A stretch of DNA of 44,791 bases from an uncultured Candidatus Saccharibacteria bacterium (GTDB lineage: Bacteria; Patescibacteriota; Dojkabacteria; J137), in the NCBI GenBank assembly GCA_964445405.1, contig CAYUKX010000002.1:1-44791 (forward strand), read 5' to 3'. Positions within the stretch are counted from its first letter, which is position 1. The number at the start of each line of letters is the position of its first letter. Below the pieces are notes generated by a model. The model did not search any database. It saw only the letters and a list, made by a program, of their open reading frames with translations, and was not told the DNA's origin. Positions 684 through 16,771 of this stretch are shown in pieces. The translations under genes were made by a program, and so were the position numbers.

Positions 684-1604
684 ATGGAAATAAAAGCAGC
701 AAACCTAAGAAAAAGAACAAGATTAGATTCCTATATTGGTATTGTATACCCCACATTATCTAGGTCTACCGTTAAAAAACTGATTTTGAGTAGTGTAGTC
801 AAGGTTAATGGTGTTTTGCCAAAGTTCAATAAAATATTAGTTGAAGGGGATATCATTGATTTTGATGAAGAAGCCTTAAAAGAATATATAAAACAGACAA
901 GCATAACCGAAATTGAACCTGTAAAGCTAAACCTAGATATTTTGTTTGAAGATGAAGATATTATAGTATTGAATAAAGATGAAGGTGTTGTAGTACACCC
1001 ATCCTATAACCATTTAAATGATACTTTAATGAATGGTCTAGTTTATCATATTCAAAATAGTGGTAACCCATTCTCAAGAATTCGACCTGTTAATAGACTA
1101 GATAAGGAAACATCTGGAATTATACTTTTTAGTAAAAACCTAGAAAGTCATAACTTTTATTCCCGACAGTTTAAAAAAAGAGAGGTAACAAAGGAATATT
1201 GGGCTGTAGTAAAAGGTGATTTTAAGTATGAGCTAGGTGGACGGAGTTCAATTAAAATTAGTGGTTTTATAGGTAAAAGCCCAGAAGGCTTTAGATATAG
1301 AGTGGCTACAGATTCTTTGAAAAATGAATATGCCGAAACTGATATTTTTTTCCAAAAAAATCTTGAGAAAGATGAGTATGAATACAGCCAATTAAGAGTA
1401 ATTCCTCATACTGGTAGAACCCACCAAATTAGAGTTCACTTAGCTAGTTTAGGTTACCCTATTGTAGGTGATACTTTATATAATGGTATGCCATATTCAA
1501 GAGTTCTACTGCATTCACATACACTAAAGATTAAAAATCAAGAGGGGATTGAACAAGTCTTTAGCGCTCTTCCGAAAAATTGGTTTGAACAAAAAGAAGT
1601 TTAA
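684..1604 (+). CDS. rluD: RluA/RluD-family 23S rRNA pseudouridine synthase with N-terminal S4-like domain
   Basis: Catalytic motif VNRLDKETSGIILFSK and C-terminal GRTHQIRVHLASLGYPIVGD are present, with an S4-like N-terminus (LDSYI..LSRSTVKKLI..VKVNG). Confidence 0.85.
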   Translation: MEIKAANLRKRTRLDSYIGIVYPTLSRSTVKKLILSSVVKVNGVLPKFNKILVEGDIIDFDEEALKEYIKQTSITEIEPVKLNLDILFEDEDIIVLNKDEGVVVHPSYNHLNDTLMNGLVYHIQNSGNPFSRIRPVNRLDKETSGIILFSKNLESHNFYSRQFKKREVTKEYWAVVKGDFKYELGGRSSIKISGFIGKSPEGFRYRVATDSLKNEYAETDIFFQKNLEKDEYEYSQLRVIPHTGRTHQIRVHLASLGYPIVGDTLYNGMPYSRVLLHSHTLKIKNQEGIEQVFSALPKNWFEQKEV

Positions 1605-1606
1605 GC

Positions 1607-2872
1607 TTATTTTTGCTTAAGCTGATCTATTTCTTTTTTTAGTTCCATCATTCTGATTTCTCTATCCACCATTAATTTATTGAGTTTTTCGTATTCTGAG
1701 ATTTTTTCTGATAACTGGGAATTACGTTTTACAATATCTGTAATTTCAAATTCGGTAGCGATATAACCTATTAACTTTCCATCTTCGCTTAATGGTGAAA
1801 TATTCACACGAGCAATATATATTTCTCCGTTTTTTCTTCTGTTAACTATCTCTGATGTAAAAGATTTTTTATCATTTTTTATAGTATTCCACATCTCAAT
1901 ATAAAATTCTTTGGTCATAAGTCCGCCCCAAAGTCTAGGTGTGTAGCCAAGCATTTCTTTCAATTTAAATCCTGTTGCTTTTTCAGCAGCTGCATTTGCG
2001 TATAATATTCTACCTTCAGTATCCGTTAATGCTATGTGTGAAGAAAACATATCCGCAGCAAGTTTAAATAACGATTTATCATTTTGCTCATTTAGCAAAT
2101 TTATACGATCAATAAAAATTTGCTTGTGGGCTTTAAATTCATCCATCTGTATTTTATCTGGATTAATATTCTGTTTCTCAAGAATTGAATATACAGAATC
2201 AATCATATCTTCTGGTCCAGATAAATACCAAAGCGCATCGTTAATAGATATATCAAATTCCTCAAGGTTTTTTTCTATAAATCCCCAGTTAAGTTTTTCA
2301 CCTATTAGTTCGTATACTCTATGATTGGGATTTGACTTGACCATCTCTTGAATTTCGTCAGAGTAAACTCTTCGATCATTTGATGCATTGTTAACAAAAA
2401 GTAAGAACTTTCTTTGATTATTTGTATTTGCAGATTCTCTTAACATTGAGATGAATGGAGCAATGCCAACACCGCCTGCTATTAATACAGTTGGGACCAT
2501 AACTTCGGGTAATATAAAAAAGCCTCTTGGTCCGAAAATCGAAAGTTCATCATCCACTTTTAAACTCAAGAGAGTTTTTTTATATCCACTATCTGATTTT
2601 CTAAATACTATTGAAATATTCTTTTTATTATTTTCTCTAGATATAATTGAAAATGCTCTTAAATTGCCCCGCGGATCTTCTTCTATTAAATTCTCAAGTT
2701 CAACCCATAAATATTGGCCTGCTACAAATTCCATTTCTTGATCTAATTCAAGGTCATATTCAAATGTGTTTGGTACTATCTCCTTTATCTTTGTAATTTT
2801 CCCCTTAAAAGAAAGTAGAGCACTTTTATTTACATATTCAAAAACATCTAATTCTCTTAAATAGCTTTCCAT
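1607..2872 (-). CDS. Fusion protein: FNR-like FAD/NAD(P)-binding oxidoreductase module + PAS domain + C-terminal coiled coil
   Basis: The N-terminal half has the ferredoxin-reductase-type pattern (RAFSIIS = RxYS-like FAD motif; LIAGGVGIAPFISMLRE = NAD-binding GGxGxxP). Residues ~265-385 are PAS-like (TDTEGRILYANAAAEKATGFKLKEMLG..NRRKNGEIYIARVNISPL). The tail is K/E-rich and heptad-like. There is a 5-nt gap to the upstream kinase gene. Confidence 0.7.
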   Translation of the reverse strand: MESYLRELDVFEYVNKSALLSFKGKITKIKEIVPNTFEYDLELDQEMEFVAGQYLWVELENLIEEDPRGNLRAFSIISRENNKKNISIVFRKSDSGYKKTLLSLKVDDELSIFGPRGFFILPEVMVPTVLIAGGVGIAPFISMLRESANTNNQRKFLLFVNNASNDRRVYSDEIQEMVKSNPNHRVYELIGEKLNWGFIEKNLEEFDISINDALWYLSGPEDMIDSVYSILEKQNINPDKIQMDEFKAHKQIFIDRINLLNEQNDKSLFKLAADMFSSHIALTDTEGRILYANAAAEKATGFKLKEMLGYTPRLWGGLMTKEFYIEMWNTIKNDKKSFTSEIVNRRKNGEIYIARVNISPLSEDGKLIGYIATEFEITDIVKRNSQLSEKISEYEKLNKLMVDREIRMMELKKEIDQLKQK

Positions 2873-2877
2873 ATTGT

Positions 2878-4965
2878 TTATTTAATAGGTAACTTAATAG
2901 TAAATGTTGTACCCTTGCCTTCTGTAGAAACAAAAGACAATTCACCAGAATGTGCCTCTATAATAGATTTTGTAATATATAACCCAAGACCTGTCCCTTC
3001 TTGTGTCATTGCATTTTTAGCTCTGTAGAATCTTTCAAATATTCTGCTCTGTTCATTCTTAGGTATTCCAAGACCATCATCTGTAATCTCTATGTAAGCG
3101 TATTCATTATCTTTATGCAATTTTATGTTTACATTTCCACCTTCTTTAGAATATTTAATTGCATTAGTTACAACATTCGAAATAGCTTCGGAGATTTTAA
3201 AGTCATCAACTGGAATTTTGTAACTATCTTTTTTATTATATTCATAATTTACTTTGACTTCATCATTGCTAGCAAGCATCTTAGTACCTTCAATAATTTT
3301 TGCAATAAGTTCTACTAAATCATTTCCTTTCTTTTCAATTGTAAAGTTCCTGCCTGTATCAATTCTTGAAACATCTAAAAGTTCTGCAACCAGGTGTATT
3401 AATCTTTCACTTGCCTCGGAAATAAAATTTACACTTGGCAGTATTTCTTTTGGAAGCTCCTTTTTAAAGTCCTCCATTATTTCTGTATGCCATTTTATTG
3501 TAGTTAGTGGAGTTCTTAACTGATGGGAAGCAATCGAAACAAACTCATCTTTCATTTTTTCTATTTGTTTTGTTCTAGTTACATCTTTTATAACAATTAT
3601 GCACTTTTCAACATTACTGTTTTTATCTAAATACGGTGCGCTAGATATACTTACACTTATTTTTTCGTTTTCTTTAGTAAGTAAATAGTATTTGTTTTCT
3701 GAAACTACTACTTCACCTTTATATGTTTCGTCTAAATACTGGGTATAAGGTACTTCCTTTTTCTCCTCTATGATTTTTATTTTGGATGAATAAGCTTTTT
3801 CAAGCAGATCCTCTTGCTTATACTTTGTTAATTTAAGAGCAGCTTTATTAACAATTTTTATATGTTGATGCTTATCTAAAACAATAACTGCATCTGCAAT
3901 GTTTTCAAGTATTGTCTTTGTTTCTTCCTCGCCCTTAGTGGCAATCTTTTTTTGAATATCGATATCTTCAAGCATATTTACCATTGCTCGCTGGTTTAAT
4001 TCCATGTTTTCTTGTTGTTCAGCAAGGTTATTTAATGCCTCTCTAAGCTGGGATTCTGTTTGCTTTATTGGTGAGATATTTTTTGCAGCAAAACTTACTA
4101 ACGTTTGTTCGGATAACTTTATAGGTGAAAGGTTAACAATTACCCAGAATGTTTGGTTGTATGTATCAACTAGTTGCAGTTCCCTTTCTACTTCTACATT
4201 ATTATTAATTACTCTTTCAATATCATTAATAAAAACATTCCTGAACTCCTTGGAGATATACTTAATTATTGACTTTTCGACCAGATCTTTTAGGTATCCT
4301 TCGCCCCAAAAAGCAATTGCATAAGAATTACTAGCTTTAATCTGTAGTCTATTATCCAGCAGAAAATATATATCTTTTCCGGAATTTGCTATGGATATTA
4401 AATAATTTTGTAAAGATTCTAGATACTTGGATTGTTGAATTTGCCTGACTTGAATATAGTAAAGTAAGGCACAAGCAGATATATAAAAAATAACATTAAT
4501 TACTTGTGGTGCAGGTGTTAAAAGGAATGTAATTAAGTAAGTAAGTAAAGCGGTAATAATTATTGCAGCTATCCCTCTTTTTTTTCTAATAGGTAAAATT
4601 AAGAAAATAATAGCTACTAGGTTAATAAATGGTGCTTCAGTATTTTTAAATGAAGTATAAGATATTAATATCAAATTACTAAGGTAAATAAATGCTACAA
4701 GAATATAAAGAAAAGTCTTGAGCATGCTCGCAAAAAACTTATTCAGTAACGACGTAGTAAATACCGCAATGCCGAAAATTAATACAACATTCGCAAGTTT
4801 TAGAAAAACTTGATTAACTTCTGAAGGTTCAATAATTAGTGCCGATATAGCTACATACTGAAGTAAACATACAATTATTACTCCAATTCGAGTGTTGGAT
4901 ACTTCAGATTTAGTCGAAATTTTATAGCTCTTTTCTAAAAAGAAATTCTTTAAGTTATTATTCAT
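2878..4965 (-). CDS. Membrane sensor histidine kinase (multi-TM N-terminus, two PAS-like domains, HisKA, HATPase_c)
   Basis: The first ~175 aa hold about 6 hydrophobic helices. H-box is FVSIASHQLRTPLT. N/G boxes are NAIKYS, DDGLGIP and GTGLGLYITKSIIEAHSG. Confidence 0.85.
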   Translation of the reverse strand: MNNNLKNFFLEKSYKISTKSEVSNTRIGVIIVCLLQYVAISALIIEPSEVNQVFLKLANVVLIFGIAVFTTSLLNKFFASMLKTFLYILVAFIYLSNLILISYTSFKNTEAPFINLVAIIFLILPIRKKRGIAAIIITALLTYLITFLLTPAPQVINVIFYISACALLYYIQVRQIQQSKYLESLQNYLISIANSGKDIYFLLDNRLQIKASNSYAIAFWGEGYLKDLVEKSIIKYISKEFRNVFINDIERVINNNVEVERELQLVDTYNQTFWVIVNLSPIKLSEQTLVSFAAKNISPIKQTESQLREALNNLAEQQENMELNQRAMVNMLEDIDIQKKIATKGEEETKTILENIADAVIVLDKHQHIKIVNKAALKLTKYKQEDLLEKAYSSKIKIIEEKKEVPYTQYLDETYKGEVVVSENKYYLLTKENEKISVSISSAPYLDKNSNVEKCIIVIKDVTRTKQIEKMKDEFVSIASHQLRTPLTTIKWHTEIMEDFKKELPKEILPSVNFISEASERLIHLVAELLDVSRIDTGRNFTIEKKGNDLVELIAKIIEGTKMLASNDEVKVNYEYNKKDSYKIPVDDFKISEAISNVVTNAIKYSKEGGNVNIKLHKDNEYAYIEITDDGLGIPKNEQSRIFERFYRAKNAMTQEGTGLGLYITKSIIEAHSGELSFVSTEGKGTTFTIKLPIK

Positions 4966-5022
4966 ATGTTCGTACTATATCAATATAGAGTGTTTTTCAA
5001 CGAATTGGAATATTAATCTATG

Positions 5023-6135
5023 TTACTGACATTGAATTCCGTTAAGAGTAAAGTTGGAACTCAGTAATGGATTATTTGCTCCAGAATAACTCCCTTGGAA
5101 CCCGAAGGCTTGTGTTCCACCATTTGCCAGAATAATCTGGTTGTATACGGCATCATTTGCCGTTACTGCTGTTCCAGTTTGCGACCAAAGTGTATTCCAG
5201 GCATTAGTTATTACTTGGTTCCCAGTAAAATTCCATAATAAACTCCATGTACTAATATTATTTGCAGATATATTTGTAATTACAACATCGGCATTAAACC
5301 CATTCGCCCATTGACTAGTTATTGTGTAGTTAACTTGACAGTAATTTGAGTTTGGAACCCCTGGGTCTTCAATTACACCATCCAATATTGCGTCACAAGG
5401 GGAGCCATTAACTAAAATTATTGAATCCACAGGTGCATAATTATATCCTGTATAACTTGCTTCAAACCCAAACGTCTGAGACCCACCATCGGCAGCAATT
5501 AATGAATTATAGCCAAGATTAGTACCTGTAAATAAATTACCTGATTGTGACCAACCTGTATTCCATGCGTTCAATATTGTTTGATTCCCTGGAAAATTCC
5601 AAGTTATTGTCCAGCCATTAATATCAGTTGGAGTGTTGTTGGTAATAGTTACATCGGCTGTAAAGCCGTTTAAATATGCATTTGTAATTTTATATAACGC
5701 TGAACAATTCCCAGCTGTCATAATCTCAGGAACTTCGTCCCAAAGTGTGACTATCGTGGAGGGATTCACTGTTGAAATATGAGTATGAACTTTTCTAGTA
5801 ACATTTCTAACAGTGGAGGATGTGTTTATTTCCCGGTTAGTATTACCTGTACCAGTTATATTGTAAATAGTGCAGCTTTCTCCGCTAAAAGATAGAGTTT
5901 CGTTTCCTGTATAAGCAGTATTAAGTTTAAGTTTGTTTATGGCAATTTCGGCACAGCTATGTGCAAGGCTTCTGGCCTCTATAGAAGATAGTGAATTAAA
6001 GCTTGTTGTAAATGAATCATTCGAAACTAATATCGTAGAAGTAATAATCATTGCTGTAGCAATCATCAGTATTAAAACACTAGTTATAGTTGTAAAGCCT
6101 TTCTTTAATTTTTTATCTGAGTGTTGCTGTTGCAT
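5023..6135 (-). CDS. PilX/GspK-like minor pilin carrying two C-terminal CBM2 carbohydrate-binding modules
   Basis: The N-terminus KKGFTTITSVLILMIATAMIITS is a pilin-like hydrophobic helix without Glu5. Residues C144-C247 and C266-C369 each fit the CBM family 2 pattern (C..Y.I...W.NGF.ADV.ITN....I..W...WNF.GNQ.I.NAWN..WSQ.G..........YN..I...GG.Q.FGF..SY.G.N........NG..C). It is the last gene of the pilus operon and overlaps the preceding gene by 23 nt. Confidence 0.8.
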   Translation of the reverse strand: MQQQHSDKKLKKGFTTITSVLILMIATAMIITSTILVSNDSFTTSFNSLSSIEARSLAHSCAEIAINKLKLNTAYTGNETLSFSGESCTIYNITGTGNTNREINTSSTVRNVTRKVHTHISTVNPSTIVTLWDEVPEIMTAGNCSALYKITNAYLNGFTADVTITNNTPTDINGWTITWNFPGNQTILNAWNTGWSQSGNLFTGTNLGYNSLIAADGGSQTFGFEASYTGYNYAPVDSIILVNGSPCDAILDGVIEDPGVPNSNYCQVNYTITSQWANGFNADVVITNISANNISTWSLLWNFTGNQVITNAWNTLWSQTGTAVTANDAVYNQIILANGGTQAFGFQGSYSGANNPLLSSNFTLNGIQCQ

Positions 6136-6625
6136 AAAATGTTTGAGAATAATCCAGAGCTGGTTTCCCGGTTGTATTAATGTATGTTACTGTAATTTCT
6201 ATTCTTACTGACCCTACAGCAAAGTTTTCTGTTACATTTCTGAACGTAAGAGACGAAATAGTTACCCTATTAGAATTTAAAGTATTTGCAGGATTACTAC
6301 CTTCGGTAATGGTTATATTGCCTCCACTTAAAGCTATTCCTGTTGGACTGTTAGCCGCGCTAGCCATGACTAGTGATAGAGTACTTCCGCTATTCCCAAT
6401 TGTAGGTGTATTTACTGCACTTGCATTTCTAATGGTTTGAGTTAGTTTAGAAATTATAGATGTGGCTTCTGAACTAACAATCGACATAGCTTCGCCACGG
6501 TCTCGAGTATCGCTTGCTGTAACCCAAAGCATTGCAATCATTAATACTAGTACAGAAGTCAGTGACATATAAAGCAGAACTTCTATTAGTGTAAATGCTT
6601 TTTTTGTATTTATATTAGTTTTCAT
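6113..6625 (-). CDS. Minor (pseudo)pilin, PulJ/PilW-like, prepilin-type N-terminus
   Basis: N-terminus is MKTNINTKKAFTLIEVLLYMSLTSVLVLMIA (class III signal, Glu at +5). It has a 1-nt overlap with the upstream gene. Confidence 0.8.
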   Translation of the reverse strand: MKTNINTKKAFTLIEVLLYMSLTSVLVLMIAMLWVTASDTRDRGEAMSIVSSEATSIISKLTQTIRNASAVNTPTIGNSGSTLSLVMASAANSPTGIALSGGNITITEGSNPANTLNSNRVTISSLTFRNVTENFAVGSVRIEITVTYINTTGKPALDYSQTFYATATLR

Positions 6626-8022
6626 TAGTTTGGTTTGTAAATCATTACTTCTTGAGTATTATTGCTACCAACACCAAATACTCTGTCTAATAGAGGATTA
6701 TAGAAAACATCATTTAGGTTTCCGGTATAGGCCAAACTTCCAAATACTGTCGGGCTTGCAGCGTTCGTTGCATCATAAATTGTAAGTTGGGTAGAAGTAG
6801 CGTCTGCTTGAAAAATATATGGTAAAGAAACATCACCAGTTATTGATAAGCTTGTTGCTCCCACCGCAAATCCGGCACTATTTAATGCAGTTGGTGCAAG
6901 TGGATTAGTTATACTAGCTAAAGATATTGTTGTTCCCCTTTGCAATGCCACACCTAGAGAGTATCTAGCAATGTCCGCGGCATCTGTGTTCCCGGATAAA
7001 TCTAATCCACTTGCAAAAGCAGGTAGGGCGGGGTTAGATATATCGTATATGGTTAACTCAGCATTATTAGCCGAACTTGCAAGATACGCGTAGTTACCTT
7101 CAACCAAGAGTTTAAATATGTTTGCTGCTATTTGTGCGGATCCAAGCAGTGCAGGCGATGCAGGGTTTGTTAAATCGTAAATATATAATTCTGGATCTGT
7201 ACTTGTAGACCTTGTTAAATAGAGCCTATTGTTAAGAACAAAAACACCATTTGCATTGGCTGTTCCTGGCATGTTCACAGTTACAAGTGTTGGCGCAGTT
7301 GGAACAGTCACATCAACAATGTTTAGTTCATTCGTATTACTAGAAGATGCCAAATACACATAATTACCATAAGCTGCAATATCCGCTAAGGTCCCAGTTA
7401 TGCTTATTGTTCCTTGAATAACAGGTGCTGCTAAATTGCTAACATCAACAACAGTAAAATTACTTGCACTACCTGTTCTTGCAACAAATATTTTGTTCCC
7501 GAATTGAAGAACTTCAACAGCATCGGTTGTTCCTGAAAGGTCAATACCACTTTGCAAAGATACACTAGCCCAAGTTTCGTTTGTGGCTGTAGGTCGTTCC
7601 CAACTTGTAAGTTGAACAGTTGCATCTATTGCCCTAGAACTACTACTATTTTGCCAAGATACTGTAACGGTCACTTGTTTTGTATAGGCATCGATTGTCG
7701 ATATTTGTACCGCACGTGTAAAACCATCAACGGAGTCAGATGTTCCTACAAATGCCCAGGAACCAGCAGATAAACCTAAACCATATGTTCCATTAGTTAA
7801 ATTCGAATATGAATTATCTTTTATACTTGTAACTGCTTCTATTCCTTCCTCTAATAGAAAGTTGGCTTTGTTTTCTAAGTTCGCTTGTGATTGTGCAAAA
7901 ATACCATAAGAAAGTGAACCTGCAAGTGTAACAGCAATAATACTTATTAATGCCAATGCTAAAACTACTTCAACAGTAGAAAATCCTCTTAAGTTTTTAG
8001 AATGTAATTTGACCTTTAGCAT
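6625..8022 (-). CDS. Modular minor pilin: prepilin N-terminus fused to an LVIVD-repeat beta-propeller-like domain
   Basis: N-terminus LRGFSTVEVVLALALISIIAV has Gly -1, Phe +1 and Glu +5. The C-terminal ~315 aa contain repeated GNY(V/A)YLASS..NELNIVDV..P.AP / ELYIYDLTNPASP / ELTIYDISNPALP / QLTIYDATNAASP units, typical of LVIVD repeats (PF08309). Confidence 0.8.
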   Translation of the reverse strand: MLKVKLHSKNLRGFSTVEVVLALALISIIAVTLAGSLSYGIFAQSQANLENKANFLLEEGIEAVTSIKDNSYSNLTNGTYGLGLSAGSWAFVGTSDSVDGFTRAVQISTIDAYTKQVTVTVSWQNSSSSRAIDATVQLTSWERPTATNETWASVSLQSGIDLSGTTDAVEVLQFGNKIFVARTGSASNFTVVDVSNLAAPVIQGTISITGTLADIAAYGNYVYLASSSNTNELNIVDVTVPTAPTLVTVNMPGTANANGVFVLNNRLYLTRSTSTDPELYIYDLTNPASPALLGSAQIAANIFKLLVEGNYAYLASSANNAELTIYDISNPALPAFASGLDLSGNTDAADIARYSLGVALQRGTTISLASITNPLAPTALNSAGFAVGATSLSITGDVSLPYIFQADATSTQLTIYDATNAASPTVFGSLAYTGNLNDVFYNPLLDRVFGVGSNNTQEVMIYKPN

Positions 8023-8449
8023 TTACTGTTATTGTTTTTGTAATACCATTATTAGTTATATTTATAGCTCCAGTTGTATTTGGAGTACCGTGTAGTTTAT
8101 TAAAAACAACTTCAGTAACTCCTGTGACTGTAAAACGATTTCCAATACTCCATGCCCTATCAAATGTTGCATTTCGACCCGTAAAGCTACTGCCAGAAAA
8201 TACAATTACTTCATAGTTTGAAAAAGCTACACCCCAACTAGTATCATAAAACCCATCTTCAGAATAACTCTGTGCCATTTTTAAGCTTTTGTAGTAAATG
8301 TTTACTGCATCATCAATCTCACTTCTGTATAGAAAATTCTGGTACAAAGGGACACTCATGACGAATATTATCGCAATCAAAGACATTGACAATAATAATT
8401 CAAATAAGGTGAATGCTTTCTTTTTATTACTCAATCGGTTCATCATCAA
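7997..8449 (-). CDS. Minor pilin, GspH/FimT-like, prepilin-type N-terminus
   Basis: N-terminus is NKKKAFTLFELLLSMSLIAIIFVMSVPLY. It lies between pilC and the other minor pilins. Confidence 0.8.
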   Translation of the reverse strand: MMMNRLSNKKKAFTLFELLLSMSLIAIIFVMSVPLYQNFLYRSEIDDAVNIYYKSLKMAQSYSEDGFYDTSWGVAFSNYEVIVFSGSSFTGRNATFDRAWSIGNRFTVTGVTEVVFNKLHGTPNTTGAINITNNGITKTITVNAKGQITF

Positions 8450-9659
8450 TTATGATTAAATCTTGTTCAACTGTGGATGGAGTATCCTCAATTAAGTCAG
8501 GGTTATTTATAACATTTTCAGTTGGCGGCTGTTCTATAGATGCTGGTTGAATACCATCTGTCGTTAATGATGATATGTTACCTACAATATTATATAAAGG
8601 TAAAATAACTGCTACTGCAACAAATGCAATTCCCGCCCAAATTATAATTATTAGTATTGGTTCAAATATAACACCAGCGTCTTTCAAACTAACTTCATTT
8701 CTTTTTTCAAAGGTTTCACCTATCAATAAAAAGTTTTCTGGTAGTTTTCCAGTTTTTTCACCAACTATAACCATTTCTCTTGCATATAAAGGAAGCATTC
8801 TTCTAACTCGTTTATCGTTATAGAAGATCTCTGAGAATTTATAACCTTTATCTATTAAAATACCCATATCGGTATATAATTTTTTGTAGCTCCTAAAACT
8901 TGTAGCATTCGCAAGTAATAACAAAGACTCTGATGGCGAAATTCCCGTTTCAAACAAATTATTTAATAAATAACCAAATCTAGTAATTTCTGTTTCCATT
9001 AATACATTCTTCAGAATTGGAACTCTAAATAATATTGAATCACCTATATGTTTAGTTTTCTTATTTATGAATAGTGTATAAATTGTGAATAACAACAAGA
9101 ATATAAATAGTGGAACGGCAATAACGCCATACTTGTCAAAGAAATCGCCTACAGCAATCAATATTTTTGTGATGGTAGGTAATTCAACGTTTAAGCTTTT
9201 ATAAATTGTGGTTAATCTTGGTAATACAAAGCCAACCATTACCATAACTACAATTATTAGTAGAGTTAGTACAAAGCTAGGATACAAACTTGCAGATTTT
9301 ATTTTGTTAGAAAACTCATTATCCCTTTGCAGGTATTTAACAACGGTTTTTAAGTTCTTAGGTAGATTGCCGGTCTGTTCACCAATTTGAATTAATGCTA
9401 TTAAGTGATCACCAATATATTTTTCCTCTTTAAATATTTTCCATAATTGCTCTCCGTTTTCGACTCTAAGCCTTAACTTATTAATTAGTTTTTGAACGTT
9501 GGCAGATTTGGTTTCATGTTCAAGAGATTCAAGTATTGTATCTATATCAATACCTGCTGCAAGCATGTTTGCAATGTTTTCGAATAGGTAATTCTTATAC
9601 TTATTTACATTCAGCTCAATTGTAAAAAGCGAGTTTATTTTTTTTATTAATGAGTTCAT
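8427..9659 (-). CDS. pilC: Type IV pilus platform protein PilC (GspF family)
   Basis: It has two GspF-type half-domains, each with the conserved E.TG.LP motif (IGEQTGNLPKNL; VGEKTGKLPENF), and three hydrophobic helices. It shares an ATGA overlap with pilB. Confidence 0.9.
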   Translation of the reverse strand: MNSLIKKINSLFTIELNVNKYKNYLFENIANMLAAGIDIDTILESLEHETKSANVQKLINKLRLRVENGEQLWKIFKEEKYIGDHLIALIQIGEQTGNLPKNLKTVVKYLQRDNEFSNKIKSASLYPSFVLTLLIIVVMVMVGFVLPRLTTIYKSLNVELPTITKILIAVGDFFDKYGVIAVPLFIFLLLFTIYTLFINKKTKHIGDSILFRVPILKNVLMETEITRFGYLLNNLFETGISPSESLLLLANATSFRSYKKLYTDMGILIDKGYKFSEIFYNDKRVRRMLPLYAREMVIVGEKTGKLPENFLLIGETFEKRNEVSLKDAGVIFEPILIIIIWAGIAFVAVAVILPLYNIVGNISSLTTDGIQPASIEQPPTENVINNPDLIEDTPSTVEQDLIIIDDEPIE

Positions 9660-11347
9660 TTCTTATTTAACTTTCGTAAATTTTTATAAATCATCTTTTT
9701 TTCTATTGCTGGTGCAACTCTAAGTACTTCTTCAATTGTAGTTAGTCCCGCTCTAACTTTATCTAATCCGTCTTCAAAAAAAGATATTGCTCCATTTTCT
9801 TTTGCGACATTCCAAATTTCAGAACTTGAGCTTTTTGTTAGTATCAAACTTTGTAATTCGTCATTAATTTCAATTAATTCAAAGATTCCTATTCTTCCTC
9901 TATATCCTGTAAAATTACATTTCTGACACCCTTTACCAGAGTAAAGTCTTATCTTTTCATCTTTAAAATATTCTTTGCTGTACGGCATTAGCTCTTCTAG
10001 GTCATCATGAGTATATTCATGACTTACTTTACATGAATCGCATATTTTTCTAATAAGTCTTTGAGCAACAATTAGGTTTAAAGTTGATGCCAATAAAAAT
10101 GGCTCAATGCCCATATCAACAAGCCTTGGGATTGCGGTTGCCGCATCGTTAGCATGAAAAGTTGATAGTAATAAGTGTCCAGTTAACGCCGCGTTTACAG
10201 CTATTTCTGCTGTTTCTACATCTCGGATTTCTCCAACTAACATTACATTAGGGTCCTGTCTGACAATTGATCTTAGACCTCTTGCAAAAGTAATTTCGTT
10301 TTCTGCATTTACTTGTATCTGATTAATTCCTGGAATTCTAAACTCAACAGGATCTTCGATTGTAGTTATATTTATTTGGGGGTTTAAAAGAATTTTTATT
10401 ATAGAGTAGAGCGTTGTTGTTTTACCAGAACCTGTTGGGCCGGTTGTTAATATCATTCCGAAAGGTTTTTTATAAGCTTTTTCAAGTTTACTAAAGTTTG
10501 CTTCAGAGAACCCTAAATCCTTAATATTTAGGTTCTTTGTATAATTTGTCAGTATTCTAATTACAATTTTTTGTCCATCTAATACAGGAACAATAGATAC
10601 TCTTAAATCTACAGCGAATTTATCGTTTGAAAATCTAATAGCACCGTCCTGAGTTCTGTACCTTTGGTCAATTCTAATATTAGACATTACTTTTATTCTA
10701 TTTAGAATATTTTCGTAAAGCTGCACCGGAACTTCGCCAACTTCTCTAAGTAATCCATCAACTCTTATACGTAGTAATACTGTTTCTGATTGTGGTTCAA
10801 AATGAATATCTGAAGCTTTTAAATCGTATGCTTCACTAAATAATTCATCTAAAAATTTATTAGTAAAATCTGTCCCACTTTCAAAAATGGTATTAATTCT
10901 ATCCTGAAATGGATCTTTGAATCTTAATAAAATTTCATCAATATCTTCGGTTAGTGAGTAGAAAATTTCAACTTTATATTTTGGTATAACCGTTTCTAAT
11001 AGATCTTTTATTTCCTCAATCTGTTCAACTCTATCTGTGGTAACGCTTATTGAATAGTTATCGACTTTAAATGCTAAAACTCGATTTTCGTTAACTATAT
11101 CTTTTGGAATAATATTCAAAGTATCTTCTTTAATTTCACTTTTTTGAAGATTAAAGTAACCAACTTTAAATGTTTCTGCAATTGAATGCCCAATTATTTC
11201 TTTGCTGAAGAACCTTGCTCCAATTAAGTTATCAATGACTGTGCCTCTAGGGTAATCTGCCAGTGCCTTATTAGTATCTTCTTCGGAAATGTAATTATTA
11301 TCAAGTAGGGACTTAAGAATTTCTGTCTCTGATAGCGTACTTCTCAT
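9656..11347 (-). CDS. pilB: Type IV pilus assembly ATPase PilB (GspE family)
   Basis: Walker A is GPTGSGKTTTLYS. Asp/His boxes are VMLVGEIRD and LLLSTFHANDA. The tetracysteine motif is CDSC...CQKC. A GspE_N-like N-terminal domain is present. Confidence 0.93.
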   Translation of the reverse strand: MRSTLSETEILKSLLDNNYISEEDTNKALADYPRGTVIDNLIGARFFSKEIIGHSIAETFKVGYFNLQKSEIKEDTLNIIPKDIVNENRVLAFKVDNYSISVTTDRVEQIEEIKDLLETVIPKYKVEIFYSLTEDIDEILLRFKDPFQDRINTIFESGTDFTNKFLDELFSEAYDLKASDIHFEPQSETVLLRIRVDGLLREVGEVPVQLYENILNRIKVMSNIRIDQRYRTQDGAIRFSNDKFAVDLRVSIVPVLDGQKIVIRILTNYTKNLNIKDLGFSEANFSKLEKAYKKPFGMILTTGPTGSGKTTTLYSIIKILLNPQINITTIEDPVEFRIPGINQIQVNAENEITFARGLRSIVRQDPNVMLVGEIRDVETAEIAVNAALTGHLLLSTFHANDAATAIPRLVDMGIEPFLLASTLNLIVAQRLIRKICDSCKVSHEYTHDDLEELMPYSKEYFKDEKIRLYSGKGCQKCNFTGYRGRIGIFELIEINDELQSLILTKSSSSEIWNVAKENGAISFFEDGLDKVRAGLTTIEEVLRVAPAIEKKMIYKNLRKLNKK

Positions 11348-11871
11348 TTTTTATCAAAGTAATCTTTTAAAAATTCAACAATTTGTGAAAGTTGAAAATT
11401 TGATTTAATCCAGAAATCTATTGCACCTAAATCTTTTGTTTTTTCGATATCCTCTTCTTGGCTTAAATTAGAAAGTACAATTACTTCTGGAGGGTTCTTT
11501 AGTAGTTTTAGCTCTTTTAGGACTTCAAAACCATCTTTATTAGGCATTAAAAGATCTAATAGGATTAAATCATACTTATTCTCTTTAATCATTTTAATAA
11601 CCTCGTTGCCATCTCTAGCAATATCTATCTGAAACCCAGCGGCCCTTAGCTTTATGCTAAAAGCATTCGTAAGGGATTCTTCGTCTTCTGCAACAAGAAT
11701 TCTATAGGATTTCTTTAATGATTCTTCTTTCTTTTCATCATCTTTTATTTCCTTTTTTACTACAGGTTTCTCGTCAACTTCCACTTCCGGTTCGTTTTCA
11801 AGCATCTCTTTTATGCTTTTTCTAGGCTCTTCTTGTTTCTTTTTATTCTTCCCTAAGTCAGTGAATATCAT
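11344..11871 (-). CDS. Stand-alone CheY-like response-regulator receiver with K/E-rich N-terminal extension
   Basis: Sequence RILVAEDEE ... DLILLDLLMPNKDGFEVLKELK ... VIVLSN ... fits a receiver domain. There is no output domain. It is translationally coupled (ATGA) to pilB. Confidence 0.85.
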   Translation of the reverse strand: MIFTDLGKNKKKQEEPRKSIKEMLENEPEVEVDEKPVVKKEIKDDEKKEESLKKSYRILVAEDEESLTNAFSIKLRAAGFQIDIARDGNEVIKMIKENKYDLILLDLLMPNKDGFEVLKELKLLKNPPEVIVLSNLSQEEDIEKTKDLGAIDFWIKSNFQLSQIVEFLKDYFDKK

Positions 11872-11887
11872 CTTATTTATGTTGAAA

Positions 11888-11909
11888 GTCCTTTACGAAT
11901 GTAAAGGAC
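11888..11909 (-). terminator. Hairpin between major pilin genes and pilus assembly genes (likely partial terminator/attenuator)
   Basis: GTCCTTTAC-gaat-GTAAAGGAC forms a 9-bp perfect stem. It starts 24 nt after the pilin stop and is followed on the minus strand by TTTC. Confidence 0.6.
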
Positions 11910-11932
11910 AAACGTTCATTTATTATTTAAAA

Positions 11933-12388
11933 CTATCTACTAACACTTATTGTTGCTGACTCTGCGTTTGGTGCAGCTACTGTAACTCTGTTAGATGCCG
12001 CTAAACAAATAGTATATCCAGTGTTTGCAGCAGTCCCACCGGTTGGGTCTTTAGGTATTCCTACTACATAGGTTGGTACAAGCAGTGTTGATAAATCAAT
12101 ATAGTCAGGATCCACTGTCGTTCCAATAATTAGTACATCAGTTGTGCAGTTAGGAATTGTTCCAAAATCACCAATAAGGTTCCCTGATTGTGATGTATAT
12201 TGAGTAACCGCATTTAGAATTTGGGTTACATCAGATCTTCTTTGTGTATTTCTAGCATCCTGAAAATTCTTTGCAGGGTTAATTGCAATAATGGTAATGG
12301 CAGCTAAAAATCCAATTAAAGCAATTACTACAAGAACTTCGATTAATGTGAATGCTTTTTTTGTTTTGTTTGGTTTGTATTCCTTCAT
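11933..12388 (-). CDS. Type IV major pilin, paralog 2
   Basis: N-terminus is KTKKAFTLIEVLVVIALIGFLAAITIIAINP. It is 59 aa identical to the neighbouring paralog and shares the C-terminal ESATISVSR. Confidence 0.9.
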   Translation of the reverse strand: MKEYKPNKTKKAFTLIEVLVVIALIGFLAAITIIAINPAKNFQDARNTQRRSDVTQILNAVTQYTSQSGNLIGDFGTIPNCTTDVLIIGTTVDPDYIDLSTLLVPTYVVGIPKDPTGGTAANTGYTICLAASNRVTVAAPNAESATISVSR

Positions 12389-12406
12389 AATATATTAATA
12401 AATTAA

Positions 12407-12847
12407 TTATCTACTTACTGAAATTGTCGCACTTTCTCCACCAGGAGCCGATACAGTTACTCTTCCTCCAGTAGTTAAACATATATCGTAACCAGTATCT
12501 GTTACAGTACTTATACTTGGATCGTTAGGTATTGCAACAACATATGTTGGTACAAGGTTTGTTCCTAGATTCACCATACCGACTGCAGTTCCAATGTTTG
12601 TAGTCGTAGGGCAAGTTGCAATGGTTCCTAATCCCGATAGGGTGTTGCCTTGTTGAGTTGTATATTGAGTAACCGCATTTAGAATTTGGGTAACATCAGA
12701 TCTTCTTTGAGTATTTCTAGCATCCTGAAAGTTCTTCGCAGGGTTAATAGCAATAATAGTAATAGCAGCTAAAAATCCAATTAAAGCGATTACTACCAGA
12801 ACTTCGATCAGTGTAAATGCTTTTTTCGTTTTATTTCTGTTGTTCAC
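12407..12847 (-). CDS. Type IV major pilin, paralog 1 (GTG start)
   Basis: It has the same prepilin N-terminus and is the first gene of the pilus operon. The start codon at 12845-12847 reads GTG on the minus strand. Confidence 0.9.
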   Translation of the reverse strand: MNNRNKTKKAFTLIEVLVVIALIGFLAAITIIAINPAKNFQDARNTQRRSDVTQILNAVTQYTTQQGNTLSGLGTIATCPTTTNIGTAVGMVNLGTNLVPTYVVAIPNDPSISTVTDTGYDICLTTGGRVTVSAPGGESATISVSR

Positions 12848-12970
12848 ATTCTATATTTAAAATTTAATAATTCAATATTAGTCTATTCTTTTTAAAAATT
12901 CATTTCAAGTCTTGTGTGGTGTAAAAAAATAAGCTAATTTTGGTAGTTAATTTAATACTCAGTTTTAGCC

Positions 12971-14443
12971 ATGTTGCAAAAATTAATAATGTCTGATCCA
13001 AAATTTGCTACAAAATTATTAAATAGCAAAGGAAGGAGTGCTGCTTTAAAAGCGTTTAAAGATGCTGCAAAATTACCAGCTTACTTGGAACTTTTGAAAA
13101 CACATAATGTAAGTATTAATGATATTCATTCAGTAGCGGATTTTGTTAAATTACCAATTCTTGATAAAAAAAACTATATTAATGCGTTTCCATTGGAAGA
13201 TCGAATAAAGTTTAAGATGTATAAAAACTATACAATTGAGCGAAGTAGCGGGTATTCAGGTGAGCCAAACTATTGGGTAAGATTTAGCGGACAAGATGAC
13301 GCTACTGAAAAACGAATAGTTGAATTAATAGATAAGATTTTTGAAATAAAAACTAAAAAAACCTTAATGATTAATACTTTTGCAATGGGAACTTGGATTG
13401 CTGGCATTAAGTCGGCTAGATGGTTTTTGAATGCAGCAAACAATAAAGATTTAGATTTAACAGTTGTAAATGTTGGAATCAACCTCGAGGAATCCATTGA
13501 GATTTTCAAAAAGTTCTACAAGCACTACGATCAAACTATATTTATGGGCTACAATCCCTTTTTAAAACAAATTGTAGATAAGATCTCAGGACAATACGAC
13601 CAATCACATGTTGTACATCTTTTAATGGGTGGCGAAGGCTTTTCAGAAGATTGGCGAGACTATATTGCTAATAAATTAGGCTATAGAATTGAAGATTTTA
13701 AGGGGAAAGTAATATCAGGTTATGGTGCAGCGGATATGGGCAATGATATAGGAGTAGAGCAACCGTTTTCTATTATGTTGCGAAGGGCATTTACAAAGAA
13801 GCCTGAGTTAATGAAGAAATATATAGGAGAAGTTGGGGATTTTGTCCCACTAATGTTTCAATATTCTCCTACTAAAGTATTTGTGGAGACAAATGATGCA
13901 CAAGAGCTAATTTTTACTGCAAATAGTGGAGCACCTCTTGTCCGCTATAATTTGCACGATAAAGGCGGTACAATTAGTTATCTTGATGCTTTAAGTATTG
14001 TTGAGGAAGTTTATGGTAAGGATTATGTTAAAAATGTACTTAAGCCTATGCCACTTCCAGTTATCTTCTTGTACGGAAGATCAGACTCAACTATTCATGT
14101 AACTGGCGTTAATATTTATATGGAGCATATTAAGCAGTCAGTCAATAATAGAGATATTAGTGAATATACCACAGGACGATTCTATTGTTTTGTTGAAGAC
14201 GATGAAAATTATAATCAGAGATTTAATATGGTTATAGAAGCAAGAGACGTAAAATTAGCTGAAAACAAAAAATCTGTTATTCAAAAAAATATAACTACAA
14301 CAATAGCAAATCTAAACCAAGAATATAAACATTTATTAGAAACTAACTTCGAGTTGGCAAACCCAGTAATCAACTTCGTTTCAGAAGAGGAATTTGAAAA
14401 ATATAGTAGAAAAAGTATTAAAATAGTTTATAAAAAGAATTGA
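12971..14443 (+). CDS. Adenylate-forming enzyme, PaaK / coenzyme F390 synthetase-like (ANL superfamily)
   Basis: The N-terminal pattern (..DIHSVADFVKLPILDKKNYINAFPLEDR..) and the P-loop-like ERSSGYSGEPNYW at ~residue 90 resemble phenylacetate-CoA-ligase-family proteins (SSG[ST]TG.P). Size is ~490 aa. Confidence 0.55.
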   Translation: MLQKLIMSDPKFATKLLNSKGRSAALKAFKDAAKLPAYLELLKTHNVSINDIHSVADFVKLPILDKKNYINAFPLEDRIKFKMYKNYTIERSSGYSGEPNYWVRFSGQDDATEKRIVELIDKIFEIKTKKTLMINTFAMGTWIAGIKSARWFLNAANNKDLDLTVVNVGINLEESIEIFKKFYKHYDQTIFMGYNPFLKQIVDKISGQYDQSHVVHLLMGGEGFSEDWRDYIANKLGYRIEDFKGKVISGYGAADMGNDIGVEQPFSIMLRRAFTKKPELMKKYIGEVGDFVPLMFQYSPTKVFVETNDAQELIFTANSGAPLVRYNLHDKGGTISYLDALSIVEEVYGKDYVKNVLKPMPLPVIFLYGRSDSTIHVTGVNIYMEHIKQSVNNRDISEYTTGRFYCFVEDDENYNQRFNMVIEARDVKLAENKKSVIQKNITTTIANLNQEYKHLLETNFELANPVINFVSEEEFEKYSRKSIKIVYKKN

Positions 14444-14447
14444 AAAT

Positions 14448-15128
14448 ATGTGGAATATATACGCAAAAAACTACGATAGCGCTACTTTAAGTTTTACGGC
14501 ATATAAAGAACTAATGCAACTCGTTATTGAAAACCTTAAAGTTACAAATAAAGATTCAATATTAGACATGGGTTGTGGCACAGGAAATCTAGAGGATATA
14601 TTAGCAGAATCAGATACAGATTTTAGTTTAGTGGGACTTGATATTTCTAATGAAATGCTAAGAGTTGCCCAAAGAAAAGTCCGTGACGATACAAGATTCA
14701 ATTTTAAGAATTTTGATCTGAATATGGAACTTACATTTGAGAGTAATTCATTTAATAAGGTTGTAATGATTCATTCACTTTATACATTAAATAATTTAGA
14801 TTCAGTTTTACAGAATGTAAAAGGAGTTTTGGTAAATGGAGGTGAACTGCACATTGTTAATCCATTAAAAGATGCACAAATCAACAAGATGGTAAGTTAT
14901 GAGTTAAAAAAATCCGGAGTATTTGTATTTATAATTAAATTGCTACTTACAATACCCGCAAATATAATAAATAGACTAATCGCTAAAAAAGCAGATGCTA
15001 ATGAGTTTCATTTTTTAACGAACGAGGAATACATTCTGCTTTTAGAAAAAAATGGTTTTAGCGTAGTAGAAACATCCCTTGTGTATGCGAATCAATCAAC
15101 TTATATAATTTCTAAGATTACAAAATGA
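14448..15128 (+). CDS. Class I SAM-dependent methyltransferase
   Basis: Motif I is ILDMGCGTGNL, with post-I VGLDIS and a later VLVNGGEL. It overlaps the next gene by ATGA. Confidence 0.85.
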   Translation: MWNIYAKNYDSATLSFTAYKELMQLVIENLKVTNKDSILDMGCGTGNLEDILAESDTDFSLVGLDISNEMLRVAQRKVRDDTRFNFKNFDLNMELTFESNSFNKVVMIHSLYTLNNLDSVLQNVKGVLVNGGELHIVNPLKDAQINKMVSYELKKSGVFVFIIKLLLTIPANIINRLIAKKADANEFHFLTNEEYILLLEKNGFSVVETSLVYANQSTYIISKITK

Positions 15129-16771
15129 ACCCAACTTCCTATGAGTTTGTAAATTACTTTGTAGCAGTTACCTCGGCAGGAATTAGCTTTGCAATAGCTA
15201 TACTTTTCTTTATGGCTTTTAGAAGGCATAAAACTGAACATACAATCTTTAGAGCACTTGGTTTTGCTTTTATAGGTGAAGCATTTGGGTTTCACTTATT
15301 TGAAAGATCATTTCCAGAGCTTACAGTAGTTGCCTATGTATTTGAGTTAATAGGGTTGCTATTTTTATATTATTCACTGCTATTAAATAACGAAGAAGGT
15401 CAGGTATTTTTTACTGAAATTGTATTTGAAAATCGTCCAAAACCACTAAGAAAGTTACCTGAATTTTTAAGATTTATTGCAACTGCTTTTGTAATCTGTT
15501 GTGCATTTGCACTAATAATGAACCAGACAACTGGTAGTATAAACTTATTTACTCCTTCGCTTGCAATGTTCCTAGCTATACTTAGTTTCGAAGTTGCGTA
15601 TCTTAAATATAGTGAATTTAAAAATAAAACATTAAGCTCTAAATTAACTATCTTTGTAATATTAGGATTTATATTTTTTGGAATTAGGCATCTACTGAAT
15701 GTAATCTTCACTCTCCCAGCGGATGTTGATATTCCAAATAAAATCGAGCTTACATCGCTAATTGGACCAATGTGGCTTGCTATAAATATTATTACACTAA
15801 TGTCTTTTCTATTTTTAGCGATCTGGCAATGGGGATTCGTTAGAAAAAGATTTTTTATACGGGTTGTCGAAGTGTTACTTTCTGTGACAATACTTTTAGC
15901 AATTAGTAGTTCTGCCATAATTGGTGTACTTGGCAGTAACATTATTAAGGATACTAACCTTACGTTGGTTAAAAGAAACTCTGATTTGATTAAACTATTT
16001 TTTACTGAGAAGCTCGAACTGACAGCTAATATTGCAGATGCAGTGACTTCTAGACCAACACTGGTACAATCCATTGAAGATAGAGAAGGAGAATTAATTA
16101 AGATATTCCTAGCATTTTTTTCGGAACATTTAGATAATGCATCAAACTTTAGAATTTACGATAGATCCGAAACCGTAATCTTTAACCCTTATTTCCCAAG
16201 TGAACAAGGTCTTCAAGTTAAAGATAAATTCATTGAAAAAGTATTTGAAACAAAAAAGACAATTAATACGTTCGGAATTGTCCCAGGTACTAATATAATG
16301 GCGGGACGAAGTTTAAGTCCGTATATTGTAAATGGTGAAGTTGAGTTTGTTTGTGCAATTAATTTTTATTTTGACGATAATTTCTTAAAAGAAATTAAGA
16401 ATAATACTGATATAGATATTATTGTATATAAGCAAAATCAAATTAGCGCTTCTACAATCAATTCTAAAGATATCGAAAATACTTTGTCTGATACAGAAGT
16501 TATAGACACAGTACTTTCTCAGGGAAACCAAGTAGATAAAATTTCGCTTTTAGGAACAACAGAATATTTTACTGACTATAGTCCTATTAAAGACGTTAAT
16601 GGCGAAGTTACAGGAATTCTTGCTAGTCTAAGAAATCGAGATACGATCACTGACTATATTAGAAAGCAATTAAATATTACATTCGTTGTTATTACTAACA
16701 TTGCTTTCGGTGTTACAGTAATAGCGTATATAATTTTAAAGAGAGGTTATAAAAAGGATGTAGAAGAGTAG
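15125..16771 (+). CDS. Polytopic membrane protein with Cache-like extracytoplasmic domain and no cytoplasmic output domain
   Basis: About 8 N-terminal hydrophobic helices are followed by a ~245-aa soluble stretch and then one final helix (ITFVVITNIAFGVTVIAYIIL). Only ~12 residues follow that helix. The Cache assignment rests on overall pattern only. Confidence 0.45.
   Translation: MNPTSYEFVNYFVAVTSAGISFAIAILFFMAFRRHKTEHTIFRALGFAFIGEAFGFHLFERSFPELTVVAYVFELIGLLFLYYSLLLNNEEGQVFFTEIVFENRPKPLRKLPEFLRFIATAFVICCAFALIMNQTTGSINLFTPSLAMFLAILSFEVAYLKYSEFKNKTLSSKLTIFVILGFIFFGIRHLLNVIFTLPADVDIPNKIELTSLIGPMWLAINIITLMSFLFLAIWQWGFVRKRFFIRVVEVLLSVTILLAISSSAIIGVLGSNIIKDTNLTLVKRNSDLIKLFFTEKLELTANIADAVTSRPTLVQSIEDREGELIKIFLAFFSEHLDNASNFRIYDRSETVIFNPYFPSEQGLQVKDKFIEKVFETKKTINTFGIVPGTNIMAGRSLSPYIVNGEVEFVCAINFYFDDNFLKEIKNNTDIDIIVYKQNQISASTINSKDIENTLSDTEVIDTVLSQGNQVDKISLLGTTEYFTDYSPIKDVNGEVTGILASLRNRDTITDYIRKQLNITFVVITNIAFGVTVIAYIILKRGYKKDVEE

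Follow-up and report, generated by a model that had tools for sequence, protein, structure and literature searches.

A receiver-only response regulator gene coupled to pilB in an accessory type IV pilus locus of a Dojkabacteria-like bacterium

Type IV pili are the main tool with which bacteria of the Candidate Phyla Radiation (CPR, or Patescibacteria) find, bind and move on their hosts. The locus analysed here encodes such a pilus and lies on a contig of 44,791 nucleotides (CAYUKX010000002.1, hereafter the window) from an uncultured bacterium deposited as Candidatus Saccharibacteria (assembly GCA_964445405.1); in it, the gene for a receiver-only response regulator overlaps that for the extension ATPase PilB. 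Control of PilB by a lone receiver has been described in Xanthomonas: in Xanthomonas oryzae pv. oryzicola, PilB is bound by the single-domain receiver EmvR, which reduces the ATPase activity of the motor and interacts with the kinase ColS (PMC11973254), and DrdR of X. campestris binds both PilB and PilT (PMC13507683). Two pilus systems, T4P-1 and T4P-2, are known from Saccharibacteria TM7x, and the second has been shown experimentally to form adhesive, host-binding pili (PMC11623550); none of the terms ‘response regulator’, ‘histidine kinase’, ‘two-component’ and ‘receiver’ appears there. A review of PilB cofactors makes no mention of Patescibacteria (PMC11656802), and in the literature no published account of the regulation of CPR type IV pili was found, nor any description of a CPR kinase–receiver–PilB module.

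The window comprises all of contig C2 of a 1.04 Mb genome in 114 contigs that is 85% complete; its G+C content is ∼32% and its closest named relatives are Candidatus Dojkabacteria and other CPR bacteria. The pilus locus encodes the second type IV pilus system of this Dojkabacteria-like organism, an accessory one without PilT (‘type II’). By analogy with EmvR and DrdR, it is probable that a PAS histidine kinase encoded in the same gene cluster phosphorylates the receiver and that the receiver acts directly on the accessory extension ATPase, PilB2.

The receiver, its kinase and the pairing with PilB

Eleven co-oriented open reading frames on the minus strand, to which all gene coordinates of the locus refer, occupy positions 1607–12847. 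Read 5′ to 3′, the order is two pilins, a hairpin, the receiver, PilB, PilC, four pilin-like genes, a PAS histidine kinase and a protein combining an FNR-like module with a PAS domain (FNR-PAS). An initial annotation of the stretch had listed these genes and their tight junctions, and all were found: four-nucleotide ATGA overlaps at 11344–11347 and 9656–9659, overlaps of 23, 26, 1 and 23 nucleotides (8427–8449, 7997–8022, 6625 and 6113–6135), and gaps of 57 (4966–5022) and 5 (2873–2877) nucleotides, to which a gap of 61 nucleotides at 11872–11932 can be added.

The receiver gene (11344–11871) encodes 175 residues, with a lysine/glutamate-rich, disordered segment at residues 1–55 and a canonical receiver at residues 56–175. 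Response_reg (residues 58–166, E = 4e-21) is the sole domain; as previously proposed, the protein is devoid of a DNA-binding or any other output domain, and Pfam detects neither a sigma-54 AAA+ activator domain nor a helix-turn-helix, so that it does not qualify as a PilR. The Sigma54_activat matches in this genome are weak and generic to AAA+ proteins, and the same model also matches in all 14 control genomes. The earlier label ‘CheY-like’ is apt for the architecture but not for the sequence, which is nearest to the WalR/YycF and PhoP receivers of the OmpR family rather than to CheY; no CheW was found in the genome. AlphaFold2 models residues 56–175 as a (βα)5 fold with a predicted local distance difference test score (pLDDT) above 95, and the tail of residues 1–55 without structure at a score of ∼55. 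The tail, which the initial annotation had singled out as unusual, is present, but it is limited to this lineage: it is full-length in close relatives only, shorter in the related species represented by locus L057 and missing in most lineages. Among nine PilB-adjacent receivers (alignment A1), E62, D63, D106, S134 and K156 are invariant and F153 stays aromatic (F/Y). With all these residues intact, the protein is predicted to be competent for phosphorylation-driven switching. A clade signature, SNLxQxxD, is situated at β4–α4, on the usual output face; it is missing from the other receivers of the genome and from nine of ten receivers located between PilB and PilT in loci of another type.

The stop codon of the receiver gene is overlapped, in the first of the ATGA junctions, by the start of the gene for PilB2 (9656–11347; 563 residues; T2SSE, E = 3e-120; MshEN, E = 1e-6), the extension ATPase of the accessory pilus. 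The NCBIfam model that it matches best, PilB TIGR02538, scores 498 bits, short of the equivalog cut-off of 675, and PilB2 is therefore regarded as a divergent member of the family. The platform protein PilC2 follows (8427–9659; 410 residues; two T2SSF domains, E = 6e-39).

How far this pairing extends was assessed in several samples. Ten loci were found through PilB2 and all their proteins mapped: the receiver directly precedes PilB in seven, only an inverted pilin gene intervenes in an eighth, and eight contain a homologue of the PAS kinase. In Shapirobacteria the order is kinase–receiver(–second receiver)–PilB–PilC–minor pilins–pilin. In back-searches every PilB-adjacent receiver tested matched the window receiver best in this genome (for example, 97 versus 58 bits), and every pilus-locus kinase tested matched the window kinase best (for example, 200 versus 132 bits). 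A profile of the nine aligned receivers was then searched in 151 evenly sampled CPR genomes: PilB follows the receiver in 18 of the 29 best foreign matches, each from a different genome, seven of these 18 loci have a kinase just upstream, and one further locus reads PilB–receiver–PilC. A coordinate cross-match of two phylum searches places the pair in at least 21 of the 151 genomes. A scan of species-representative genomes with the clade motif returned at least 585 relatives. Among the best 79 named loci, 60 show receiver–PilB, usually followed by PilC, a minor pilin and a homologue of the propeller-pilin described below, and at least 28 have a kinase within 4 kb; such 4-kb kinase counts are a lower bound, because the window's own kinase, 6.4 kb away, would be missed. 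Across 74 receiver–PilB pairs the median distance from receiver stop to pilB start is 4 nucleotides, with an exact four-nucleotide overlap in 11, figures obtained with a choice of start codons that favours short gaps. The lineages concerned are Gottesman-, Woese-, Davies-, Levy-, Shapiro- and Dojkabacteria, WWE3, Falkow-, Uhr-, Jackson-, Komeili-, Staskawicz-, Moran-, Doudna-, Peri-/Peregrini- and Gracilibacteria, and metagenome-assembled genomes labelled ‘Saccharibacteria’. In some CPR loci two to four receivers stand in tandem before pilB, as in the order kinase–receiver–receiver–PilB. The arrangement is thus not special to the window and constitutes the regular gene order of one ancient type of CPR pilus; limited to this lineage are the 3′-terminal place of the kinase gene, the added FNR-PAS protein, the CBM2 modules of one minor pilin and the disordered tail of the receiver. 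As a side observation, 20 listed genomes without a match to the receiver profile average ∼1.6 T2SSE matches, compared with ∼3 per genome overall in the 151, no more than a hint that the receiver tends to be missing where a lineage has one pilus ATPase, related genomes not being independent.

Forty PilB genes taken from genomes with several copies fall into recurrent layouts. Type I reads (PilM)–PilB–[receiver]–PilT–PilC–pilin, type II, which lacks PilT, reads [kinase]–receiver–PilB–PilC–minor pilins, and a third layout has just PilB–PilC. For 111 PilBs a tree was built by a quick IQ-TREE search, with support given only by the Shimodaira–Hasegawa-like approximate likelihood ratio test (SH-aLRT). 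PilB2 belongs to a clade of 50 members (SH-aLRT 100), every one of which has a receiver upstream, 46 by a distance threshold and four by locus maps. This indicates that the pairing of receiver and PilB2 is old and inherited rather than a chance neighbourhood. The genome's other extension ATPase, PilB1 on contig C3, falls in a separate clade of 21 members (support 99), 19 of which lie next to PilT, ten with a receiver between. Eleven records labelled Gammaproteobacteria, Pseudomonadales or Methylomirabilota (L060, L072, L084, L090, L092, L105, L112, L119, L120, L122 and L138) carry the CPR receiver–PilB operon, and their PilBs nest inside CPR clades, L122 for instance beside a Shapirobacteria locus; these labels are probably wrong and the records mislabelled bins. 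Two further observations concern PilB itself. A receiver-only gene is wedged between PilB and PilT in many CPR type I loci (L150, L154, L161, L163, L169, L170, L173, L175, L177 and L136), and the C3 locus has no such insert between PilB1 and PilT. Six unusually long PilBs of 700–970 residues in the phylum sample carry extra MshEN domains, one of them together with an HU-like domain: in this protein of 940 residues (L139:600-3422, G145:C4), MshEN and T2SSE are preceded by an HU-like Bac_DNA_binding domain (E = 2e-13) at the N terminus, and other long CPR PilBs have two MshEN domains.

The kinase gene (2878–4965) encodes a membrane sensor of 695 residues with PAS–PAS–HisKA–HATPase architecture (HATPase_c, E = 3e-30; HisKA, E = 9e-14; PAS_9, E = 1e-14). 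About six hydrophobic segments lie within residues 22–174, and PAS matches in two stretches; the H-box motif SHQLRTP is visible in HisKA and the catalytic HATPase_c domain is present. In NCBIfam the protein is nearest to the PnpS/WalK/PhoR class, which belongs together with the WalR/PhoP-like class of the receiver, so that the classes of the two proteins match. The last gene (1607–2872) specifies the FNR-PAS protein, an FNR-like flavin reductase module (FAD_binding_6, NAD_binding_1) joined to a PAS_9 domain and a coiled-coil tail, 421 residues in all. Locus L057, whose receiver is 64% identical to that of the window, has the same operon (receiver–PilB–PilC–four pilins–kinase–FNR-PAS) and the same flanking genes (RluD-like and RelA/SpoT). 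Its kinase is likewise 695 residues long, FNR-PAS comes directly after it, and 18 nucleotides precede the kinase gene versus 57 in the window, a junction that argues for co-transcription. No FNR domain was found in the more distant of the ten mapped loci. The PAS domain of FNR-PAS is 42–50% identical (E ∼1e-30) to the kinase-proximal PAS of six CPR pilus-locus kinases (L017, L020, L022, L023, L025 and L026) but has no detectable similarity to those of the kinase encoded next to it. In the Dojkabacteria kinase of L017 both PAS types stand in tandem. These relationships suggest that FNR-PAS may be a split sensor, in which an ancestral sensory PAS moved onto a separate flavin reductase and which probably talks to the kinase. 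A LOV/NifL-type flavin signature was sought by eye in this PAS domain and was not convincing.

Pilins, missing parts and flanking features

The initial annotation had pointed to the lack of PilD, PilM–O and PilT in the window. This holds for the window and not for the organism: the profile search of the genome that it had recommended, once run, revealed a complete PilT-type locus on contig C3, where PilB1, PilT, PilC1, a pilin, PilD, four minor pilins, PilM, a PilN-sized gene and PilO follow one another in one direction. It is this complete locus that identifies the system in the window as accessory. PilD (C3:25172-25543) matches Peptidase_A24 with 40.5 bits against a cut-off of 26.5, the PilT family scores 415 bits, above the curated cut-off of 319, PilM is clear (E = 5e-41) and PilO weak (E = 5e-4). 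PilB1 and PilB2 are 39% identical, PilC1 and PilC2 24%. The accessory system would have to share at least its prepilin peptidase with the C3 system. No secretin was found in the genome, as is expected for CPR cells.

Two paralogous major pilins head the locus, one of 146 residues with a GTG start (12407–12847; N_methyl, E = 6e-7; class III signal KKA|FTLIEV) and one of 151 residues (11933–12388; N_methyl, E = 3e-7). They are 73% identical to each other, and homologues of the second are present in related loci. The four proteins encoded between PilC2 and the kinase form a putative tip or priming set. A minor pilin of 150 residues with a TTG start (7997–8449; N_methyl, E = 3e-5) occupies the slot directly after PilC, which is conserved in related loci. 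It is followed by a pilin-like protein of 465 residues with an LVIVD-repeat β-propeller (6625–8022; LVIVD, E = 1e-20; Beta_propel, E = 4e-9), whose N-terminal pilin part is kept at the same operon position across CPR and which has full-length orthologues in L017, L019 and L057. Next come a minor pilin of 170 residues (6113–6625; N_methyl, E = 9e-5), conserved in the same three loci, and a PilX/GspK-like minor pilin of 370 residues (5023–6135) that is without Glu5 and bears two CBM2 modules (CBM_2, E = 9e-50). Conservation of the latter in L017 and L019 is restricted to residues 1–135. Since its orthologue in L057 (L057:6092-6502) has only 136 residues and no CBM2, the modules are a recent, lineage-specific gain; the protein is likely a tip adhesin.

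Class III prepilin signals (G/A|F-x-x-x-E followed by a hydrophobic helix) are present in these proteins, with N_methyl matches in four genes (6113–6625, 7997–8449, 11933–12388 and 12407–12847). The residue at the cleavage position is Ala instead of Gly (KKA|FTLIE) in four of the six pilin-like proteins, and Gly in the propeller-pilin, the CBM2 pilin and the major pilin of C3. The coexistence of the two kinds implies that one PilD, that of C3, would have to cleave both. Streptococcal ComGC also has Ala at prepilin position −1.

Upstream of the first pilin, the divergent intergenic region (12848–12970, minus strand) is a candidate promoter of the pilus operon, with two sigma-70-like sites on the minus strand (12908–12880 and 12875–12848) just upstream of the pilin start. 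The sites are a positional hint only, because a promoter and terminator scan of 1400–13200 yielded a number of sites not above the shuffled expectation. The hairpin that had been placed between the pilins and the receiver is real though modest (11888–11909, minus strand): a 9-bp stem with a four-nucleotide loop has a minimum free energy of −12.4 kcal/mol (z = −2.0), six of 200 shuffles fold equally well, and only UUUC, a weak U tract, follows the stem. It could act as a leaky terminator or as an attenuator. Scans of the window for Rfam families and tRNA genes were negative. The receiver had also been described as the only one near the kinase, which is correct for the locus but not for the window, as a second, separate two-component pair of OmpR type lies at 31915–33689, its receiver protein at 33018–33689; two more receivers are encoded on C24.

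Some further genes may be recorded here. Divergent from the pilin promoter region, a tight set of three genes (12971–16771) encodes a 490-residue protein without a Pfam match, an S-adenosylmethionine-dependent methyltransferase and a Cache-domain membrane protein without an output domain; the set may be another sensor input. Elsewhere in the genome, a reading frame of 4658 residues (G000:C1:6271-20247) starts with a receiver domain, and so does one of 607 residues (G000:C25:4170-5993), which is followed by a frame of 1630 residues. Giant receiver-headed proteins are unusual.

Proposed control of the motor and competing explanations

In the scheme considered here, the locus would supply its own major pilins, PilB2, PilC2 and the four-protein tip or priming set, in which the propeller-pilin and the CBM2-bearing PilX-like pilin would probably serve adhesion to a polysaccharide surface. 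Control would be post-translational: the membrane PAS kinase would autophosphorylate on its signal, probably modulated by FNR-PAS acting as a detached redox or flavin sensor module, and would hand the phosphoryl group to Asp106 of the receiver. Owing to the ATGA overlap, the receiver would be made in a fixed ratio with PilB2. Once phosphorylated, it would bind PilB2 through its α4–β5 face and change either the ATPase activity of PilB2 or its recruitment to the platform, turning pilus extension on or off. Phosphotransfer from this kinase to this receiver is suggested by the conserved adjacency of the two in relatives and by the reciprocal best matches, binding of the receiver to PilB2 by the ATGA coupling and the phylum-wide adjacency. 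The sign of the receiver effect, the role of FNR-PAS and the sharing of C3 parts are steps that we infer.

A dedicated phosphorelay acting on the pilus motor and not on transcription had been proposed at the outset. The comparison supports a dedicated, motor-directed pair: the receiver lacks an output domain and retains its switch residues, 60 of the 79 best named loci have its gene immediately beside pilB, and kinase and receiver are reciprocal best matches of pairs that adjoin PilB in other lineages. Other modes of control were examined and, on the 85%-complete genome, rejected. Cyclic di-GMP (c-di-GMP) control of the motor finds no GGDEF and no PilZ match in the genome, and the MshEN c-di-GMP motif is in neither of its PilBs; a chemosensory (Che/Pil-Chp) route finds no CheW in the genome and a receiver nearest to WalR/PhoP rather than to CheY; and a phosphorelay route finds no Hpt in the genome.

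Tandem receivers before pilB in some CPR loci are reminiscent of the PilG/PilH source-and-sink pairs, a related receiver is found between PilB and PilT in type I loci, and DrdR binds both motors (PMC13507683). These observations would suit a pair that is dedicated to the pilus but whose receiver targets PilC2, PilM or the shared PilT, or acts as a phosphate sink tuning another receiver. Such an arrangement is rather unlikely, given that PilB, and not PilC, PilT or PilM, is the invariant neighbour, that this locus has a single receiver and that no Hpt protein was found in the genome. Indirect control of pilus gene expression, through a transcription factor, RNA polymerase or the attenuator of the pilin operon, would reduce the adjacency to pilB to mere co-expression; it would accord with the OmpR-family character of the receiver sequence, with the possible attenuator hairpin directly upstream of the receiver gene and with the classical model of PilS–PilR beside pilin genes. 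This is improbable for a receiver without a DNA-binding or other output domain, whose N-terminal tail is disordered and not conserved beyond close relatives and whose tight stop/start coupling to pilB is kept across the phylum.

The kinase and FNR-PAS could be unrelated neighbours with their own promoter, the receiver being phosphorylated by another kinase or by acetyl phosphate. A readable TTGAAA-15 nt-TATAGT motif in the 57-nucleotide gap and four other kinase-type HATPase matches in the genome (two on C24, one on C5 and one in the window at 31915) speak for this explanation, which is nonetheless very improbable: eight of ten close loci have a kinase homologue in or beside the pilus genes, many lineages have one immediately ahead of the receiver, orthology is indicated by reciprocal best matches, the junction in L057 measures 18 nucleotides, and the gap in the window (4966–5022) contains no stable fold and no terminator-like structure. 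Finally, it is improbable that the product of the locus is a short pseudopilus for competence or secretion (Com- or type II secretion-like) instead of an adhesive surface pilus. The locus lacks a PilT gene, Ala stands at position −1 in four of the six prepilins, as in streptococcal ComGC, and the NCBIfam scores of the GspE, GspF, ComGA and ComGB models are close to those of PilB and PilC; on the other hand, the tip set carries a β-propeller and two CBM2 modules, typical adhesin parts, no secretin was found in the genome, and the PilT-less second system of Saccharibacteria makes thin host-binding pili (PMC11623550).

Several points weigh against direct action of a kinase-phosphorylated receiver on PilB2. 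Gene adjacency alone cannot prove that the receiver binds PilB2, and no receiver–PilB fusion occurs among the six unusually long PilBs of the phylum sample. Other orphan receivers, encoded on C63 (151 residues), C78, C25 and C1, could be served by the same kinase; as these are several, elimination failed and the assignment of the kinase–receiver partnership rests on synteny. The kinase lies 6.4 kb from the receiver in the window, the gap before it might contain a weak internal promoter, and no kinase was seen within 4 kb in 45 of the 79 best named loci. The lack of GGDEF, PilZ, CheW and Hpt is provisional because the genome is 85% complete, and a working accessory pilus assumes that PilM/N/O and a retraction ATPase are also, as is probable, borrowed from C3.

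Building on receiver action at PilB2, a wider scheme is possible, if tentative. CPR bacteria, seemingly without c-di-GMP or Che control, would possess a phylum-wide phospho-switch composed of a PAS kinase, an output-less WalR-like receiver and PilB, and in the present lineage the FNR-PAS split sensor would let the NAD(P)H or redox state gate the extension of a pilus with CBM2 modules of the cellulose/chitin type at its tip. If true, metabolic state would be linked to attachment to a polysaccharide surface or to a host wall.

Comparison with described systems

A similar gene content is known from TM7x, which likewise combines one complete PilT/PilD locus with a second locus that has PilB2 and PilC2 and neither a retraction ATPase nor a peptidase; unlike the locus in the window, however, TM7x locus 2 carries PilM2/N2/O2 and RecA/X (PMC11623550). 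A kinase and a response regulator inside a pilus gene cluster, next to pilA, are also familiar from PilS–PilR of Pseudomonas, Geobacter and Myxococcus. PilR, in contrast, is an NtrC-type sigma-54 activator with AAA+ and helix-turn-helix domains that controls pilin transcription, whereas the receiver described here is without an output domain.

PilG and PilH of the Pil-Chp system of Pseudomonas and the PixG/TaxP-type proteins of Synechocystis are regulators, single-domain or headed by a receiver, that act at the motor and bias pilus extension and retraction, but they depend on a CheA-type kinase, CheW and methyl-accepting chemotaxis proteins; the window offers a PAS-HisKA kinase and a WalR/PhoP-like receiver, and no CheW was found. 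FimX, PilZ and MshEN likewise exemplify direct post-translational control of the extension ATPase, exerted by c-di-GMP via the N-terminal region or an adaptor, but no GGDEF or PilZ gene and no MshEN c-di-GMP motif were found here, and a phospho-receiver may fill the regulatory niche of c-di-GMP control.

The likeness to EmvR and DrdR consists of an output-less receiver with an intact phospho-Asp, a classical, non-CheA kinase and, in the proposed scheme, direct action on the extension ATPase. The genes of EmvR and DrdR are orphans that do not lie with those of the pilus, whereas here the receiver gene overlaps pilB, the kinase belongs to the same operon and the arrangement is CPR-wide; ColS, in addition, has its own DNA-binding partner. 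The conjunction of a pilB-linked receiver gene and a sensor kinase, which recurs in many CPR lineages, provides a concrete, testable candidate regulator of CPR pili, and the FNR-PAS sensor and the CBM2 tip pilin suggest a signal and a surface that are relevant to the organism. If confirmed, the locus would extend the receiver-on-PilB mechanism, recently described for two proteins of Xanthomonas, to an ancient design encoded within an operon.

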